In this document: positions 8,277 through 18,540 of the stretch, in pieces
Position numbering within the stretch: the stretch's first letter is position 1
Layout of the letters: every line of letters starts with the position of its first letter
Source of the DNA: a virus
Taxonomy: Duplodnaviria; Heunggongvirae; Uroviricota; Caudoviricetes
DNA: 25,110 nt
Virus record (IMG/VR): IMGVR_UViG_2648501787_000018
Strand: one strand, 5' to 3'
Translations under genes and position numbers: made by a program
Notes under the pieces: generated by a model
Told to the model about the DNA's origin: nothing
What the model saw: only the letters and a program-made list of their open reading frames with translations
Database searches by the model: none

Positions 8277-9329
8277 TTATTTCCCCACCAGTTCACTTAC
8301 CTCTTTCACCGTCTGATTAAACCGCTCTGACTCAAGTTCAACACCTAACGCCCGACGCCCCAGCGCCATTGCTGCTTTTATTGTGGAACCGGATCCCATA
8401 AAGAAATCAGCAACCAGATCACCAGGGCGACTACTGGCATTGATTATTTGCCGGAGCATATCCGCCGGTTTCTCGCACGGATGTTTACCCGGGTAGAACT
8501 GAACGGGTTTATGCGTCCAGACATCGGTATAAGGCACGGAGACTGATACGGAGAAATAGCGCCGGAGAGATTTAAACTCATCCAGCAATTCAGAATATTT
8601 GCGATTCAGTGAATCATAAGATGCCACCAGCTGGTGGTGTGGTTGTTCCAGTTGTTGTTCCTGAAACTTCTCTGCCGCTATACGGGAAAACAGTGCCTGT
8701 AACTTCCGATAGTCAGCCTCATTCGGCAACTGCCACTGACTGGCACCAAACCAGTGGGAAACCATATTTTTCTTACCTGTGGCTTCGGCAATTTGTTTTG
8801 CCGTTATACCCAGTTCGGCACGAGCATCCCTGAAATACGATATCAGCGGTGCCATTATGTGCTGTTTGAGTTCCCTTTCTTTTGCTGCATAGCCGTCACT
8901 TTTGCCGCGATATGGCCCCTGGTAATGTTCAGCAAACAGAACGCGCTCTGTGGCAGGAAAATATGCGCGCAGACTTTCTTTATTACACCCATTCCAACGT
9001 CCGGACGGCTTCGCCCAGATGATATGGTTAAGCACGTTGAAACGTTCACGCATCATGATCTCAATATCAGATGCCAGGCGATGCCCACAGAACAGATAAA
9101 GGCTTCCGGCAGGTTTTAACACCCGCCAGAACTGGGCCAGACAGTGGTCCAGCCACTTAAGGTAATCTTCGTCCCCTTTCCACTGATTGTCCCAACCGTT
9201 GGGTTTCACCTTGAAGTACGGCGGATCGGTAACAATCAGGTCAATGGAATCATCAGGCAGGGACTGAATAAAATGCAGGCAATCAGCGTTGATTAAATCA
9301 ACACTGTTTATTTTTACAGTATTTTTCAT
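8277..9329 (-). CDS. DNA methyltransferase, beta-class amino-MTase (N6-adenine or N4-cytosine), orphan
   Basis: 350 aa; catalytic motif IV (IVTDPPYF) near the N-terminus and AdoMet motif I (ADFFMGSGST) near the C-terminus, the beta-class order. No restriction endonuclease gene adjacent. Confidence 0.8.
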   Translation of the reverse strand: MKNTVKINSVDLINADCLHFIQSLPDDSIDLIVTDPPYFKVKPNGWDNQWKGDEDYLKWLDHCLAQFWRVLKPAGSLYLFCGHRLASDIEIMMRERFNVLNHIIWAKPSGRWNGCNKESLRAYFPATERVLFAEHYQGPYRGKSDGYAAKERELKQHIMAPLISYFRDARAELGITAKQIAEATGKKNMVSHWFGASQWQLPNEADYRKLQALFSRIAAEKFQEQQLEQPHHQLVASYDSLNRKYSELLDEFKSLRRYFSVSVSVPYTDVWTHKPVQFYPGKHPCEKPADMLRQIINASSRPGDLVADFFMGSGSTIKAAMALGRRALGVELESERFNQTVKEVSELVGK

Positions 9330-9959: not shown

Positions 9960-10577
9960 TCAATTATCTTCCAGGCCGGATGCTATCAACGAAAGTCTCT
10001 CAAAAAACGCTGTAGCAGCCTTGTCCAAAGTTGAATAAGTACTGTATTCTCCGTGTTCGGGACCAACCACTACCCATGGTCGTCTTTTTGGGATTCGGGA
10101 TTTCTCAGAAATCACTGTTCCAGATATACCAATATCAATTGTTACACCTGTTATTATTTTCTCTTCATCTCTTTCCCTGAACTCAATTGCCATAAATGCC
10201 GTTTTTTTTCGTTTCCCGTTTTTAAAAAAATCAAATAAAGCAAAGCGATGCTCATTAAAATCAACACCCCATCGTCCTTCAGGATAAAGGGCATGAAAGT
10301 TGTCATTTACGCTCTGCATCGTCTCATAAGCTTTAACTTCTAAATCTCCATAGTGCATAGATACCGCGCAGGAGTTACTGGGTAACTGTATTTTCCCAAG
10401 ATTGAAAACCTTTACTGCTCCAGAACTATGGCATCTTGCCCGCAACTTATCCCCATTTATACTAATCGGAGAAATATTCCTTAATGTTCCGGGCTGGCTC
10501 CCTCCTAAGTAAACGACTGTTAAAGATTGCTTATTTTCAATTGCATCAACTAATACATGCTCTACATTTTTATCCAT
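9960..10577 (-). CDS. Hypothetical protein (about 205 aa) with WYL-like N-terminal motif; AT-rich moron between Q and the lysis genes
   Basis: Best start is ATG 10577-10575 with GGGAGG 6 nt upstream; the track's upstream ATG at 10604 lacks an RBS. LTVVYLGGSQPGTLRNISPISINGDKLRARCHSSGAVKVFNLGKIQL resembles the WYL-domain pattern (Y...R.i.P..l....a.c....F.L..I). C-terminal 120 aa unrecognised. Confidence 0.5.
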   Translation of the reverse strand: MDKNVEHVLVDAIENKQSLTVVYLGGSQPGTLRNISPISINGDKLRARCHSSGAVKVFNLGKIQLPSNSCAVSMHYGDLEVKAYETMQSVNDNFHALYPEGRWGVDFNEHRFALFDFFKNGKRKKTAFMAIEFRERDEEKIITGVTIDIGISGTVISEKSRIPKRRPWVVVGPEHGEYSTYSTLDKAATAFFERLSLIASGLEDN

Positions 10578-10652
10578 AATAACCTCCCAATGAACAGGTA
10601 TCATCAGGAGGTTATTATAAAATATGATTATTTACTTTGATTGAATTTATTA
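10578..10652 (-). promoter_or_regulatory. Putative late promoter (pR'-like) region immediately downstream of Q
   Basis: Minus strand contains TATAAT with an upstream TTCAAT at about 20 bp spacing; position matches lambda pR'. Not a strong consensus. Confidence 0.3.
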
Positions 10653-11024
10653 CTATATGTAACAATCAATTTCTAAAGATACCCCCAACATTGCCAGACA
10701 ACCGTCAATAAACCCTTCAGCTTTCTGCAGTCTGATAACAACCTGATTAAGTGATATCCCCAGTTTTACCCCCAACGCCCGTAATGTAACCCCATACACA
10801 TAATACATTTCCAGTAATTCGTATTGATACGGTTCCTTTTTCTTAAGAACTGTCATCGCAGAGCTAATGATCAGGCCATCGTCATCGCTACATTGCGGGC
10901 GGGATTTTACTTTCGAAGAAATTAATCCCTTAAAACCTGCAGCAACAGATGACCATTCCACATCCTCGTGATTATTTGCCACCCATGCCCCCCAACGTTC
11001 AAGAACCATTTGAATATCACGCAT
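10653..11024 (-). CDS. Late-gene antiterminator Q (QuuD/Q82-like small Q family)
   Basis: MRDIQMVLERWGAWVANNHEDVEWSSVAAGFKGLISSKVKSRPQCSDDDG matches what I recall of E. coli QuuD. ATG at 11024 has GGAG 8 nt upstream; the track's TTG at 11039 is less likely. Confidence 0.8.
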   Translation of the reverse strand: MRDIQMVLERWGAWVANNHEDVEWSSVAAGFKGLISSKVKSRPQCSDDDGLIISSAMTVLKKKEPYQYELLEMYYVYGVTLRALGVKLGISLNQVVIRLQKAEGFIDGCLAMLGVSLEIDCYI

Positions 11025-11041
11025 CAACTTTCTCCACAAAA

Positions 11042-12867: not shown

Positions 12868-13257
12868 TCAGGCGGCTGCACCCGCCGTTTTCTCGTACTT
12901 ACTGATAGTGATCTCGACCTTCCCTTTCGGGATAACCGGTCCCCACTCCACCAGCATTCTTTTCACCTGTCTGTCGTCTTCCCACACACCCGCGTGGGTC
13001 AGGGCGTCAAACAGCGCCTTGTTATAGTTGTCCAGATCACGGATCCGGTTATCCGGCGGAAACAACACGATCTCCACTGAAGCAGGTGCCGACGTTGGTT
13101 TCGGCAGACGACGTAACTGCTCAACTATTGCTGCGCACGCCGCGCTCTGAAATTTTCGCCCCGCCTCGCTTATCAGGCTCTTACCAGCAAATGCCCCTTT
13201 GTTGGGGTGTCGCCAGTACGTGTTCACACTGGGCGGGAAAGGAAGGATCAACTTCAT
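12868..13257 (-). CDS. rusA: Holliday-junction resolvase RusA
   Basis: 129 aa; LPFPPSVNTYWRH ... RDLDNYNKALFDALTHAGVWEDDRQV matches the RusA family. Start overlaps upstream stop (ATGA). Confidence 0.85.
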   Translation of the reverse strand: MKLILPFPPSVNTYWRHPNKGAFAGKSLISEAGRKFQSAACAAIVEQLRRLPKPTSAPASVEIVLFPPDNRIRDLDNYNKALFDALTHAGVWEDDRQVKRMLVEWGPVIPKGKVEITISKYEKTAGAAA

Positions 13258-13580
13258 ACTTTCAGGCCCCTCTCATGTAACCAGTGGGCTGCACGCAACC
13301 TGGCGCTCTCCTCACTGGCAAGCAGTGCGCGGATGATACCGACCGCTTCGCTGTCGTCGTCCTTCACTGCGGTATGAAGCGTGATCCCCCGGGCCACGCC
13401 ACGCTTTATCGTGATGACGCCTTTTTTCTCCAGTGCGCGAAGATGCTCCACCGCTGCATTCACTGAACGGTATCCCAGCATGGTTGCCACCTCCTGATTG
13501 GTTGGCGGAAAGCCACGCTCTTGCTGGTAAGAAATCAGCATATCCAGCACCTGCTGCTGGCATTGAGTTAACGTCGTCAT
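13254..13580 (-). CDS. LexA DNA-binding-domain-only protein (no S24 peptidase domain)
   Basis: LTQCQQQVLDMLISYQQERGFPPTNQEVATMLGYRSVNAAVEHLRALEKKGVI parallels the LexA N-terminal winged HTH; the protein ends after about 108 aa with no Ser/Lys protease motifs. Confidence 0.7.
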   Translation of the reverse strand: MTTLTQCQQQVLDMLISYQQERGFPPTNQEVATMLGYRSVNAAVEHLRALEKKGVITIKRGVARGITLHTAVKDDDSEAVGIIRALLASEESARLRAAHWLHERGLKV

Positions 13581-14230
13581 GCCGCCATCTCCCTGACAAG
13601 TTTTTCTGCCTGCTGGCGAACCTGCGCCAGAAACGCCTCACCACATGCCTCAAGTTCATCGCGCCCGATGTAGCTGATTGCCGGTCCCTTCCAGGTCTTG
13701 TCGAAAACAGCAATAGCACCAGCGAAGAAAGCGCCTGTCGGCACCTGCTTCTCGTCCTTCGGGATAAACCAGGCTGGCAGTTCAAAACCAATACGCCCGC
13801 GAATAAAAGCAATATGGTCTGCATCTTCCGGCCACCACACTTCGCTGGTGGCAGCTTTGATCAGGAAAACATAGCGCCCGCCTTTATCACGCATAGCACT
13901 GGCATGTTTCATGATGTAACGCATGCCGGTGATGTATTGCCCCTCATGCTGACTGGCGCGGCTGTACGGGGGATTACCAAAGGCAGCACCTTTAAGCTCC
14001 GCAAGACGTTCTGACCAGTCATGCGCCAGCGCGTTGTCTTCCGCAGTGTAATAAGCGGCACATTTGGCGTTATCACCATCAGTAAACAGATCCAGAACAA
14101 ACGGGCCAAACAGGGTGTTAATTCCCCAGAAAATGTTGTCCGGCGTGCGCCACTGATCGCCCACTTCCTTCAGTTCATGGGCTGGTTTGTTCCGCAACTC
14201 CACCAGCGCCTGGCAATATTTATTACTCAT
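13577..14230 (-). CDS. Phage N6-adenine DNA methyltransferase (phage Dam family)
   Basis: DQWRTPDNIF ... AFGNPPYS motifs. ATG at 14230-14228 overlaps the upstream stop (TAATG); the track's longer start at 14263 would overlap the upstream gene. Confidence 0.8.
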   Translation of the reverse strand: MSNKYCQALVELRNKPAHELKEVGDQWRTPDNIFWGINTLFGPFVLDLFTDGDNAKCAAYYTAEDNALAHDWSERLAELKGAAFGNPPYSRASQHEGQYITGMRYIMKHASAMRDKGGRYVFLIKAATSEVWWPEDADHIAFIRGRIGFELPAWFIPKDEKQVPTGAFFAGAIAVFDKTWKGPAISYIGRDELEACGEAFLAQVRQQAEKLVREMAA

Positions 14231-14718
14231 TAAGCCCCCACGTAATTCCCTGACAGATACCACTCTTCACCCGATACAGCGCGCTTGCTGCTTTTCCGTA
14301 AACACCGCTCACGACGCGCAAGAAAATTGTTTCGCTCTTGCTGGGAGTGGCTTTCACGGAATGCCGCCATCCACACCGTTGCAGCACGACGGTATAAGCC
14401 CCTGGACTCCAGTTCTTCCGCCAGGCGGGTCAGGCACAAAATCACCCGGGGATCGTTAGTGCCGACATAGAAATTGCGCACAGGTCTGGATTCACGAACT
14501 GGTTGCGGTTCCGGCTCCTGCGGTATCTCAGTCAGCCGCGGGAAATTTCTGCGTGTATCCCCTTCACAACGGTGAGCCACACGCCCACTCTGACGTAACT
14601 TGCTTGCTGACTGCAGAACGCGCTGTCGTGAGTAACCTGCAAAAGCATCCGCAATGTCTCCGGAAGTACATCCCGGATGGGCTTCAATGAATTTCTGAAC
14701 GTCATTCAAAAGACTCAT
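14230..14718 (-). CDS. Putative PerC/ANR-like transcriptional regulator (tentative)
   Basis: N-terminal HTH-like segment and LAEELESRGLYRRAATVWMAAF, reminiscent of PerC-family phage regulators. Assignment from memory, low certainty. Confidence 0.4.
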   Translation of the reverse strand: MSLLNDVQKFIEAHPGCTSGDIADAFAGYSRQRVLQSASKLRQSGRVAHRCEGDTRRNFPRLTEIPQEPEPQPVRESRPVRNFYVGTNDPRVILCLTRLAEELESRGLYRRAATVWMAAFRESHSQQERNNFLARRERCLRKSSKRAVSGEEWYLSGNYVGA

Positions 14719-15539: not shown

Positions 15540-15760
15540 GCAGCACCTCCGAGATGCTTCATGTTTTTTCCGGAGCGAAAGGCTATAAGCGGCATACTGA
15601 CGCGGTAATTACGGCCCAGCGGTTCACAAACCACCTTCTGACATTCACGGTCAACCAGGCTAACACGTAGAACATGCCCTGCAGGCGTGGTGTACCACTG
15701 ACCCGGACGAGGACAACGGAAAGTCTGATTGGTAAAACGTTTGAAAATATTCCGGATCAT
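15536..15760 (-). CDS. Hypothetical small protein (74 aa)
   Basis: Track ORF; both ends overlap neighbours in ATGA fashion, consistent with a real co-translated gene. No motif recognised. Confidence 0.4.
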   Translation of the reverse strand: MIRNIFKRFTNQTFRCPRPGQWYTTPAGHVLRVSLVDRECQKVVCEPLGRNYRVSMPLIAFRSGKNMKHLGGAA

Positions 15761-16302
15761 TTGCGCCCCCTTACCTCTGAAGAGTTCAGCGACGAATGAA
15801 TAAGACGGGCAAGAAATGCCGCATCGTTAATTCGGTCATACAGACTTACAGCCAGCGGTGATTCAGCTTTTTCCAGCATGGGATAAAGCTGCTGCAACCA
15901 GACCTGATGAATTGATGAAATGTAGGAATAGAGAACGCTGGCGTTATGTGCAACGTCGCTCGGTACAGAGGGCTTTGAAAGCTGTTTCTCCATCTGGTTA
16001 AAGGCATTGATGTATGCCTCTTTGAACTGGGCAGCACGTTTACCCGTGAAACCCATAGCAAGAAACGCAAAGCCATCGCGGGTTATTTGATAGCAAGGTA
16101 GTTTGCGGCCTGAAGCGTCGATATAACCACTTAACACAAAATTGTGTTCAGCAAATTCAGCGGAGCATTCAAGGTTTCGAATTCTATCTAAAACCCGCTC
16201 ATGCCGTTTAGTAAAGTAGTTAGCAACTGCAAGAGATGTAGTGACAGCACGACCATTGATGATCGTGATTTCAGGGTGAACAAAGGTTGGGATCGTAGCC
16301 AT
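15757..16302 (-). CDS. Rha-family phage regulatory protein (about 181 aa); the same frame stays open upstream to 16905
   Basis: ITIINGRAVTTSLAVANYFTKRHERVLDRIRNL ... YQITRDGFAFLAMGFTGKRAAQFKEAYINAFNQME matches the Rha domain. ATG at 16302-16300 has GAGG 8 nt upstream. The track ORF (382 aa) adds 201 upstream codons of atypical composition. Confidence 0.7.
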   Translation of the reverse strand: MATIPTFVHPEITIINGRAVTTSLAVANYFTKRHERVLDRIRNLECSAEFAEHNFVLSGYIDASGRKLPCYQITRDGFAFLAMGFTGKRAAQFKEAYINAFNQMEKQLSKPSVPSDVAHNASVLYSYISSIHQVWLQQLYPMLEKAESPLAVSLYDRINDAAFLARLIHSSLNSSEVRGRK

Positions 16303-16901
16303 AATGGCAGCCTCGGTAGCAAGCTTAAAAAACTCACCACATAAGACGCCAATCATAGAGGTGGTGAGACGTACAGAGTTGGCGTTACCGGCGGCTACCC
16401 TTACCGGCGCATCTTGCGATGCCCCTGTACGCCCCACCATAATTTGGGCGTGACAAAATAATGCGTACAAAAAAACCGCATCTACGCGGTTGTACGCGGT
16501 AGCCTTCTCCAGGACGCCAATCCCGGCACCCGCTTTATAAGGTGCCTGAACAGTGTAACGTCCCGGAATGGCAGAATCAATGTGCTGGTGGTCCTTCACA
16601 CTCAACAAAATCACGCCTGAATTTCCACAAAGGACTAAAGCACTCATGCGGGTAGTCTTTGCGAAGATAGATAACGCGCTGTGTTTCTGGCTCCCAACGA
16701 ATAACATGGACATAAAGCCCTCTTCCGTCACGAAACCAGCGGTTAAGTTCCTGCACAACTCGCCCCCCACAGTCAGGTAAAGTTCTCTGTGGTTACTTAC
16801 AGCCAGGTGATTTGGTAATCTGCATTCATGCCGTAACAACAGGTGTTCAGCGACACTGACCACCAGCTGTTGCGACAAACGGTTATTTGCCGTTAAACTG
16901 T

Positions 16902-17453
16902 TCATGCGTTAGTTTCTCCACAGACACAAAACGCCACGACGCCCGGAGCTGCACACTCGCGGGCGTCACTCTTTTCTGGAGCGCAGAAGATTTTGTAGAC
17001 CAGTGCTGCATGTTCCTGGAGCTTCGAAATTGACAGATACAACTCATCATTAATTGCTGTCTGCTCGTGTGGCTCCACGACCCCATCTTCGATTGCCGAA
17101 CGAATCTGCTTTGAGTAATTCCCGATCTGTTCGATGACTTCCAGCAGGCGCTGGTTTATATCGGCGTTCTCTACTTCCTCAATTTCAGGAAGCGATACGA
17201 ACACCCCACCAGCAGACTGTGCGACAGCATCCGCAATGTAGTGAGTGCCAGCCGCGCGCTGTAAAACCATTGCCCATCCCAGCGGGAAAATCTGATCGCC
17301 ATCTGCACGAAGGCGGTTGAATAAAGCGTTCTCTGTTACATCCAGCCAGTCAGCAGCTTCAGCGTAACCCCCAGGCAATGCCGCGATAGTTTTTCTGACA
17401 GCTTTCACGTGCCACTCAGGTTGTTTTTCCACTTTCCAGTGATGCTTACCCAC
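16902..17453 (-). CDS. CII-like phage regulatory protein (tentative, Phage_CP76-like)
   Basis: 183 aa, directly downstream of the cro-like gene in the cII position; GTG start with AGGAGG 6 nt upstream. Family from memory, moderate certainty. Confidence 0.55.
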   Translation of the reverse strand: MGKHHWKVEKQPEWHVKAVRKTIAALPGGYAEAADWLDVTENALFNRLRADGDQIFPLGWAMVLQRAAGTHYIADAVAQSAGGVFVSLPEIEEVENADINQRLLEVIEQIGNYSKQIRSAIEDGVVEPHEQTAINDELYLSISKLQEHAALVYKIFCAPEKSDARECAAPGVVAFCVCGETNA

Positions 17454-17803: not shown

Positions 17804-18496
17804 ATGAACATAGGAAATCGAGTCAGACAACTTCGCCAGGCGAAGAACATGAAAATCGCCGATCTCGCTGAAGCAATAGGAGTGGATGCGGCGAATATCT
17901 CGCGCCTCGAAACAGGTAAGCAGAAACAATTCACTGAACAAGCCCTGAGTAATATTGCCAGGAGCTTAGGTGTTGATATTGCTGATCTCTTTACCTTAGA
18001 CCTCAAAAGTAATACTGTATGTAAAAACAGTATTAGTGAGGATGTTGCGCAGGTGAAGGATGTATTCCGTATTGAAATGCTGGATGTCAGTGCCAGTGCG
18101 GGAAATGGCCTTATCCAGGGCGGTGATGTCATTGATGTGATTCATGCCATTGAATACAGAACTGATAATGCTGTATCGATGTTTGGTGGACGACCAGCAA
18201 ATCACATTAAAGTTATCAACGTTCGTGGGGACAGTATGTGTCCAACCATTGAGCCAGGAGATCTCATCTTCGTTGATATCAGTATCAATCAGTTTGATGG
18301 GGATGGTATATATGTATTTGGTTTTGATGATAAAATTTACGTCAAACGACTGCAAATGATACCTGATAAACTGCTGGTAATTTCTGATAATCAGATTTAC
18401 CGCGAATGGGGAATTACCAGCGAAAACGAACACCGGTTTATGGTCTTTGGAAAGGTCTTAATCAGTCAGTCACAAACCCTTAAGCGACACAATTAA
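17804..18496 (+). CDS. cI: CI-type prophage repressor (HTH plus S24 LexA-like peptidase domain)
   Basis: 230 aa; N-terminal HTH (MKIADLAEAIGVDAANISRLETGKQ); C-terminal peptidase core (VRGDSMCPTIEPGDLIFVD ... IYVKRL) with Ser and Lys. Confidence 0.9.
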   Translation: MNIGNRVRQLRQAKNMKIADLAEAIGVDAANISRLETGKQKQFTEQALSNIARSLGVDIADLFTLDLKSNTVCKNSISEDVAQVKDVFRIEMLDVSASAGNGLIQGGDVIDVIHAIEYRTDNAVSMFGGRPANHIKVINVRGDSMCPTIEPGDLIFVDISINQFDGDGIYVFGFDDKIYVKRLQMIPDKLLVISDNQIYREWGITSENEHRFMVFGKVLISQSQTLKRHN

Positions 18497-18517: not shown

Positions 18518-18540
18518 AGCCACCAGAAGGTGGCTTTTCA
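18518..18540 (+). terminator. Rho-independent terminator downstream of cI
   Basis: AGCCACC-agaa-GGTGGCT followed by TTTTC. Confidence 0.5.

Follow-up and report, generated by a model that had tools for sequence, protein, structure and literature searches.

A LexA-type DNA-binding domain without the peptidase half, encoded in the early operon of a lambdoid prophage: a candidate uncleavable LexA surrogate

The N-terminal domain of LexA, when isolated from the rest of the repressor, can still bind operators and dimerise on DNA. Some phages encode a LexA DNA-binding domain alone, and the only characterised protein of this kind that was found is gp6 of the Bacillus tectivirus GIL01, a "truncated LexA homologue" that is 44% identical to the host LexA, yet binds another palindrome, GaCACA-nn-TGTGtC at -43.5, overlapping the -35 element of the late promoter P3, and activates P3 (PMC6182141). 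This study concerns a protein of the same truncated architecture that is encoded in 25,110 nucleotides of tailed-phage DNA (IMG/VR record IMGVR_UViG_2648501787_000018; "the window" below refers to this whole stretch). The 108-residue product, here given the working label LexN, combines a LexA-type DNA-binding domain with a family-specific C-terminal tail, and it is read, with a probability of about 0.4, as an uncleavable, RecA-insensitive surrogate of LexA on SOS-type operators.

LexN resembles gp6 (of GIL01/Bam35) in that both are LexA DNA-binding domains without a catalytic domain that are encoded by temperate phages, and LexN would, like gp6, be made from an early operon after SOS induction. 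They differ in length, with 66 residues and no helical tail in gp6 and 108 residues with a tail in LexN, as well as in setting: gp6 activates a late promoter, whereas the LexN prophage has a Q antiterminator, and a palindrome scan across LexN divergence groups found no cognate site. No BLASTP alignment between LexN and gp6 was obtained at E<=100, while LexN is 51% identical to Escherichia coli LexA, and the two would therefore be independent captures of lexA heads from different host lineages. Many more short phage proteins that consist of a LexA DNA-binding domain only are present in BFVD, with varied lengths (Caudovirales, Mycobacterium phage Wildcat, Tectiviridae). Phage proteins with a single PF01726 (LexA_DNA_bind) domain share the truncated architecture of LexN, but most have 65-90 residues and are tailless or carry unrelated extensions, and no tested function was found among them apart from that of gp6.

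Compared with E. coli LexA (1jhf, 3jso, TIGR00498), LexN has Ser39, Asn41, Ala42, Glu45, Lys53, Arg64 and Gly65 in common and a hinge that aligns weakly. It differs in the absence of the S24 peptidase/dimerisation domain, including Ser119 and Lys156, in the unconserved Ala84-Gly85 pair, in the replacement of Glu44, and in a two-helix hairpin (residues 74-103) that LexA itself lacks. It is also phage-encoded in an early lytic operon, whereas LexA is chromosomal and autoregulated. Damping of the SOS response by mobile elements has other forms, e.g., plasmid PsiB, a factor that holds SOS down. The same outcome as proposed here for LexN applies to GIL01 gp7 (PMC6182141). However, gp7 and PsiB act by binding LexA or RecA and not by replacing LexA on DNA, and both are unrelated to LexN in sequence.

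The LexN protein and its gene

Residues 1-65 of LexN cover the entire Pfam profile PF01726 (1-65) with 69.3 bits (E=2.4e-19; cut-off 23.7 bits), residues 2-70 align without gaps to the E. coli LexA structures 1lea, 1jhf and 3jso (E ~1e-15), and BLASTP against E. coli LexA gives 51% identity over 68 residues (E=2e-21; the LexA query was entered by hand, its first 70 residues being those of the PDB alignment). In the AlphaFold2 model, for which a 19-sequence alignment of the LexN family served as input, the mean predicted local distance difference test score (pLDDT) is 85, and the domain comprises three helices (H1 6-22, H2 28-35, H3 40-52) and a beta hairpin (56-58/66-68). The top Foldseek match of this model in the PDB is DNA-bound E. 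coli LexA, 3jso, with a root-mean-square deviation of 1.0 Å over 67-68 columns and 50% identity, and the closest solved protein is gammaproteobacterial LexA (51% identity). The match is far beyond chance, and LexN contains a true LexA-type DNA-binding domain. The first-pass annotation, made from the letters alone, had likened the first 70 residues to the LexA winged helix-turn-helix (HTH); PF01726, BLASTP and the 1.0 Å superposition on 3jso agree with this, and profile and structure searches lead to LexA (PF01726, 3jso) rather than to an unrelated winged HTH family.

Most of the residues with which LexA reads DNA are present as well. Helix III of LexA contacts DNA via Ser39, Asn41, Ala42, Glu44 and Glu45 (PMC3091678, a secondary source), and Asn41 reaches operator position 15 via a water molecule (PMC5999292). 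In the recognition helix of LexN (SVNAAVEHLRAL, against SPNAAEEHLKAL in LexA), four of these five contacts are kept (Ser39, Asn41, Ala42 and Glu45) and position 44 is Val. Within the family of tailed relatives, Ser39, Asn41, Lys53 and Arg64-Gly65 of the wing are invariant down to ~40% identity, and Ala42 and Glu45 are retained in the close subfamily of LexN. As judged from these alignments, the domain is a largely retained LexA reading head with a family-specific change at one contact residue, and a CTGT-like half-site is likely for the LexN subfamily.

The peptidase half of LexA is missing. A Pfam search of the 108-residue protein gave no match to Peptidase_S24, and the match of LexN to the LexA equivalog model TIGR00498 is limited to positions 1-90 of 203, with 66.7 bits against a cut-off of 110.95 bits. 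A MAFFT alignment brings the hinge of LexN together with that of LexA (EAVGIIRALLA[G/S]E versus EGLPLVGRVAAGE) and places the family motif LLA[G/S/N]EE on VAAGEP of LexA, the site of the Ala84-Gly85 scissile bond, which suggests that the LexN family descended from a lexA gene cut just past the hinge. At the position of the scissile bond, LexN has Ala-Ser, close relatives have A-G, A-N or V-G, and distant members have unrelated residues or none. Because LexN has neither an S24 domain nor a conserved Ala-Gly pair, it should be unable to cleave itself and should be insensitive to RecA-stimulated autocleavage. The absence of S24 motifs and the non-cleavable nature of the protein had both been put forward in the first-pass annotation, and both hold up in the Pfam and TIGR00498 results, in the end of the protein at residue 108, and in the unconserved Ala-Gly site. 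A role of the hinge as cleavage-site mimic or pseudo-substrate was considered and rejected, as the Ala-Gly pair is not conserved (Ser in LexN, Asn in others, absent in distant members).

In place of the S24 domain, the model predicts a helical hairpin that follows a short, flexible linker of low confidence (residues 71-75). Its consensus, EAVxxIRALLAxE..ARxRAxxWLxxxG, is kept in relatives at ~40-50% identity (P0122, P0125, P0126, P0130, P0132, P0149, P0164 and P0186), and both protein length and tail are conserved down to ~40% identity. Nothing in the PDB resembles this hairpin according to Foldseek. Since hydrophobic positions occupy two faces of each helix, the hairpin is inferred from the model to be a dimerisation or partner-binding module.

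The gene itself is intact and selected. The 108-residue open reading frame (ORF) stands on the minus strand at exactly the coordinates given by the first-pass annotation (Table 1), with a Shine-Dalgarno sequence, AGGGAG, 8 nucleotides 5' of its start. Its start shares ATGA (13577-13580) with the stop of the upstream Dam-like gene, and its stop shares ATGA (13254-13257) with the start of rusA; these overlaps suggest translational coupling, and the linked module leaves no intergenic space. Scanning of the upstream sequence revealed no promoter-like site immediately 5' of the gene. The ratio of nonsynonymous to synonymous substitution rates (dN/dS) of the gene is 0.07 in one divergence group and 0.20 in another, with comparable values for the DNA-binding domain (0.03 and 0.20) and the tail (0.10 and 0.19), i.e., LexN is a functional gene under strong purifying selection over both domain and tail. 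A frameshifted full-length lexA was ruled out, since the next gene downstream is rusA. A PADLOC search for defence systems returned only a marginal, irrelevant match.

LexN is also widespread. LexN DNA at >=90% identity, with an intact ORF, is found in 2233 of 5426 complete E. coli genomes (41%), where it is annotated as "LexA family transcriptional regulator/protein" and lies between a Dam-type methylase gene and rusA. Genes 95-98% identical to it are present in SfV (orf42), SfII, cdtI, mEp460 and Stx2 phages, under labels such as "LexA-like protein", "repressor, lexA family", "LexA DNA binding domain protein" or "unknown" (SfV orf42), and the protein belongs over its full length to PHROG 362 (E=3.6e-58; residues 1-108 on profile positions 1-106 of 106). 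Linkage was surveyed in 170 IMG/VR loci, which fall into three divergence groups according to the identity of their protein to LexN (95-99%, 40-48% and 48-62%). The rusA gene directly follows LexN in 80/80, 78/80 and 10/10 loci of these groups, respectively, and DUF968 is retained nearly as often (72/80, 76/80 and 10/10). A Dam gene lies upstream in 55 of the 80 close loci and is replaced in the divergent groups; the upstream methylase, replication and immunity genes vary among loci, and LexN is freely shuffled between mosaic phages.

A separate set of library proteins carries two tandem LexA DNA-binding domains in 140-280 residues without S24 (P0127, P0134, P0144, P0147, P0155, P0158 and P0159, and likewise P0162, P0163, P0181, P0185, P0194, P0203 and P0241); in such proteins, two LexA heads may form a "pseudo-dimer" within one chain.

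LexA-box-like sites in the prophage and in related loci

The first-pass annotation had proposed a search of the prophage for LexA-box-like sites. Such sites are present: CTGT-N8-ACAG occurs three times in the window versus 0.32 expected, and none of 100 shuffles reached three. The box inside the cI-like gene (Table 1) has three mismatches to the idealised 20-bp consensus, all within the spacer, and its core persists in cI genes with DNA identities of only 91% (SfII), 76% (ST64B) and 69% (Klebsiella phage 1 LV-2017), with equivalents at L002:12290-12309, L003:11611-11630 and L004:12314-12333. The SfII version is presumably identical to the umuDC operator. The box overlaps a -10-like TACTGT, and an invariant TTTACC lies 17 nucleotides before this TACTGT, a -35/-10-like arrangement that corresponds to the layout of a LexA-repressed promoter. 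This suggests an SOS-controlled promoter within cI that could give rise to a 3' cI transcript, encoding a C-terminal-domain fragment or acting as a small RNA. An in-frame ATG downstream of the box is unconserved in ST64B, and a GTG with a Shine-Dalgarno sequence may be conserved; a terminator follows cI at 18518-18535.

The box in the N6_N4 methylase gene is present in mEp460 and in ~23 of 80 IMG/VR loci. The third, weak site co-travels with the Rha module, with 22 sites counted and 24 loci that have Rha. For the box in cI, LexN is not an obligatory companion: ST64B has the box, but its syntenic position upstream of rusA holds no LexN gene, and the tblastn matches to the LexN protein in the phage collection included neither ST64B nor the Klebsiella phage that carries the box. 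The boxes in the window look like sites for host LexA, and none is obligatorily linked to LexN; LexN might occupy them as well, but they do not define its function.

A cis operator that is inherited together with LexN was not found either. The CTGT-N8-ACAG scan revealed none among the 170 loci, and in the divergent groups the number of boxes is at chance (14 versus ~14 expected in P0130-like loci, 0 versus ~1.9 expected in P0125-like loci). A search for perfect inverted repeats of 5-6 bp at homologous positions in several divergence groups gave nothing convincing, with the limit that degenerate or short sites would be missed. The lone recurring repeat, AAACT-N11-AGTTT (73/80 close and 58/80 divergent loci), was rejected as a LexN operator, as it lies on a stop/start junction far from the gene. 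In the window, this junction joins the YmfL-like gene to the following ORF and is spanned by the palindrome AAACTGTTCATGCGTTAGTTT at 16895-16915, which may serve as a hairpin for coupling or as a site for a protein. Shuffling of LexN among mosaic phages without a co-inherited site is the pattern expected for a target on the host chromosome.

Proposed function of LexN and competing explanations

The first-pass annotation had suggested that the protein could bind SOS boxes without being cleavable, as a non-inducible repressor or competitor, and this idea is plausible. As a LexA surrogate, LexN would not be expressed in the lysogen and would be produced among the delayed-early proteins once the prophage is induced or the phage infects a cell. 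It would dimerise via the helical hairpin, and the dimer would bind CTGT-type palindromes (SOS boxes) through the retained Ser39, Asn41, Ala42, Glu45 and Arg64-Gly65, while the replacement of Glu44 probably alters the affinity or one base of the half-site. Because RecA* could not inactivate it, LexN would re-impose repression at LexA-controlled promoters after cleavage of host LexA. Its targets could include host genes (recA, sulA, umuDC and ruvAB), antirepressors or colicins that are under LexA control in co-resident elements, and the cI and methylase-gene boxes of its own phage together with the site upstream of the ant-like module. More tentatively, and with doubt prevailing over confidence, this RecA-proof LexA substitute would switch off host SOS during lytic growth, silence the LexA-controlled antirepressors and colicins of rivals, and shut its own SOS-wired promoters (one of them within cI), and would thus serve anti-SOS and inter-prophage competition functions by operator occupation. 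If LexN occupies SOS boxes, a very common prophage gene of E. coli and Shigella, also carried by Stx2-converting phages, would reshape the SOS response precisely at prophage induction. Effects would then be possible on mutagenesis, filamentation and co-induction of other prophages, and perhaps on Shiga-toxin phage dynamics under antibiotic stress, and LexN would be a natural "uncleavable LexA", hitherto mainly a laboratory mutant.

Several points weigh against LexN as a LexA surrogate. Most LexN loci have no SOS box within 6-10 kb, and LexN therefore cannot serve in general to control boxes of its own phage. No member of the tailed family has Glu at position 44 (V, A, F, T or L instead), whereas 15 of 16 S24-bearing LexA proteins sampled among the top library matches do. 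Positions 42, 43 and 45 differ as well among distant tailed members (NTIAG, NAVLL, NTVFI), which would be unexpected if all members read the same host SOS box. Judged on sequence, the specificity of LexN may differ from that of LexA, and a dimer would need a module other than S24, so that half-site spacing and dimer geometry may differ as well. The case of gp6 shows that a phage protein made up solely of LexA's DNA-binding domain can come to bind a new operator and activate transcription. Finally, the literature search returned no functional study of LexN and only annotation tables, e.g., pham 237 (PMC8136144); proteins of this kind are known and the gene is catalogued, and its function is uncharacterised in the searchable literature.

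Part of this evidence fits a different role, that of a phage-specific transcription factor which, like gp6, no longer shares the specificity of LexA and which represses or activates a particular promoter during lytic growth via a phage or host operator other than an SOS box. The precedent of gp6, with its other palindrome and its activation of transcription (PMC6182141), the systematic loss of Glu44, the variability of positions 42-45 in distant members, an oligomerisation module that differs from that of LexA, and the many phages that encode LexA-DNA-binding-domain-only proteins of varied length all agree with such a regulator. It is nonetheless rather unlikely: no palindrome with arms of 5-6 bp is conserved at a homologous position across three divergence groups, the linked module has no intergenic region in which an operator could lie, late transcription is already served by the Q antiterminator (PF06530), and the close subfamily retains four of the five LexA base contacts. 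Should the specificity have diverged, LexN would add to GIL01 gp6 a second, independent example of a LexA head reused by phages for their own regulation.

The constant neighbourhood of rusA allows for another explanation, namely that LexN is a DNA-binding accessory of a recombination module that targets or restrains the RusA resolvase or marks DNA, with the tail contacting RusA or another partner. The tail is conserved and selected with no role assigned to it, and rusA adjoins and overlaps the LexN gene in 80/80, 78/80 and 10/10 loci, even at 40-48% LexN identity and with a changing upstream neighbour. However, nin-region synteny is generally rigid, and DUF968 is kept to a similar extent (72/80, 76/80). 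ST64B has rusA without LexN, and the same presumably holds for DLP12 and phage 82. The invariant base-reading residues Ser39 and Asn41 point to sequence-specific recognition, and an accessory of RusA is altogether quite improbable. A decaying, functionless remnant of a captured lexA, as the resemblance to a lexA cut just past a still alignable hinge might indicate, is effectively refuted by the selection on domain and tail (dN/dS 0.07 and 0.20) and is further opposed by the conservation of length and tail to ~40% identity, the intact ORF in 41% of complete E. coli genomes, the good Shine-Dalgarno sequence and the overlapping, probably coupled start and stop codons.

Prophage setting and neighbouring features

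The lambdoid prophage in the window is of the SfV / SfII / mEp460 / cdtI / Stx2c type, with 96-98% identity across 3.6 kb around LexN. On the minus strand, a Cro-like gene is followed by the YmfL-like gene, the isrK/C4 RNA-Ash-Rha module, a replication protein, a PerC-like gene, Dam and LexN, and then by RusA, KilA-N, DUF968/HNH, the Q antiterminator, an unknown ORF, the N6_N4 methylase and the lysis genes. LexN thus belongs to the nin region of the rightward early operon, with the replication genes on one side and Q on the other. The features are collected in Table 1.

Table 1. Coordinates of LexN, its domains, candidate LexA boxes and neighbouring genes in the window
Feature	Position	Strand	Basis or remark
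LexN (LexA-DNA-binding-domain-only protein) ORF	13254..13580	-	ATG start, 108 residues; ORF list
LexA-type winged HTH, residues 1-68	13377..13580	-	AlphaFold2 pLDDT ~90; Foldseek 3jso; 51% identity to E. coli LexA
Recognition helix region, residues 39-52	13425..13466	-	SVNAAVEHLRALEK in LexN versus SPNAAEEHLKALAR in LexA; alignments
Family-specific helical hairpin, residues 74-103 (helices 74-87, 93-103)	13272..13361	-	AlphaFold2 pLDDT ~90
Near-consensus LexA box TACTGTATGTAAAAACAGTA, candidate target	18013..18032		Inside cI-like ORF 17804..18496 (+), linker between HTH and S24
LexA box CACTGTTTATTTTTACAGTA, candidate target	9302..9321		Codons 3-9 of N6_N4 DNA methylase gene
Weak CTGT-N8-ACAG site	16787..16802		~240 nucleotides upstream of isrK/C4 RNA-Ash-Rha (antirepressor-like) module
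Phage Dam-type N6-adenine methyltransferase, upstream of LexN	13577..14263	-	Pfam PF05869, E=1.1e-45
RusA Holliday-junction resolvase, downstream of LexN	12868..13257	-	Pfam PF05866, E=1e-14
N6_N4 DNA methylase gene, downstream of Q	8277..9329	-	
Q antiterminator	10653..11039	-	PF06530
cI-like repressor with S24 domain, divergent	17804..18496	+	

Between the PerC-like gene and rusA, ST64B has just one gene, for a 297-residue Dam methylase, sb44 (L003:6930-7823), and no separate LexA-like gene. A Dam-LexN fusion was rejected for sb44, the translation of which consists of Dam and an unrelated, proline- and acid-rich C-terminal extension of ~80 residues. Three further apparent Dam-LexN fusions with PF05869 and PF01726 (P0023, P0092 and P0098) are short (179-185 residues) and occur on single contigs, and they were treated as frameshift or annotation artefacts.

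The isrK/C4-Ash-Rha/ant region is probably an immI-type module like those of P1, N15 and Gifsy. Rfam places isrK at 16469..16545 and the C4 antisense RNA at 16357..16444 (-), both within a 382-residue "Rha/Ash" ORF (15757..16905, -) in which the Ash match begins at residue 117. The N-terminal ~120-180 codons of this ORF, which lie 5' of the Ash match and overlap both RNAs, are probably not coding. Directly downstream of the Q gene, a 214-residue ORF (9960..10604, -) without a Pfam match has a position like that of a moron in the late-promoter region.

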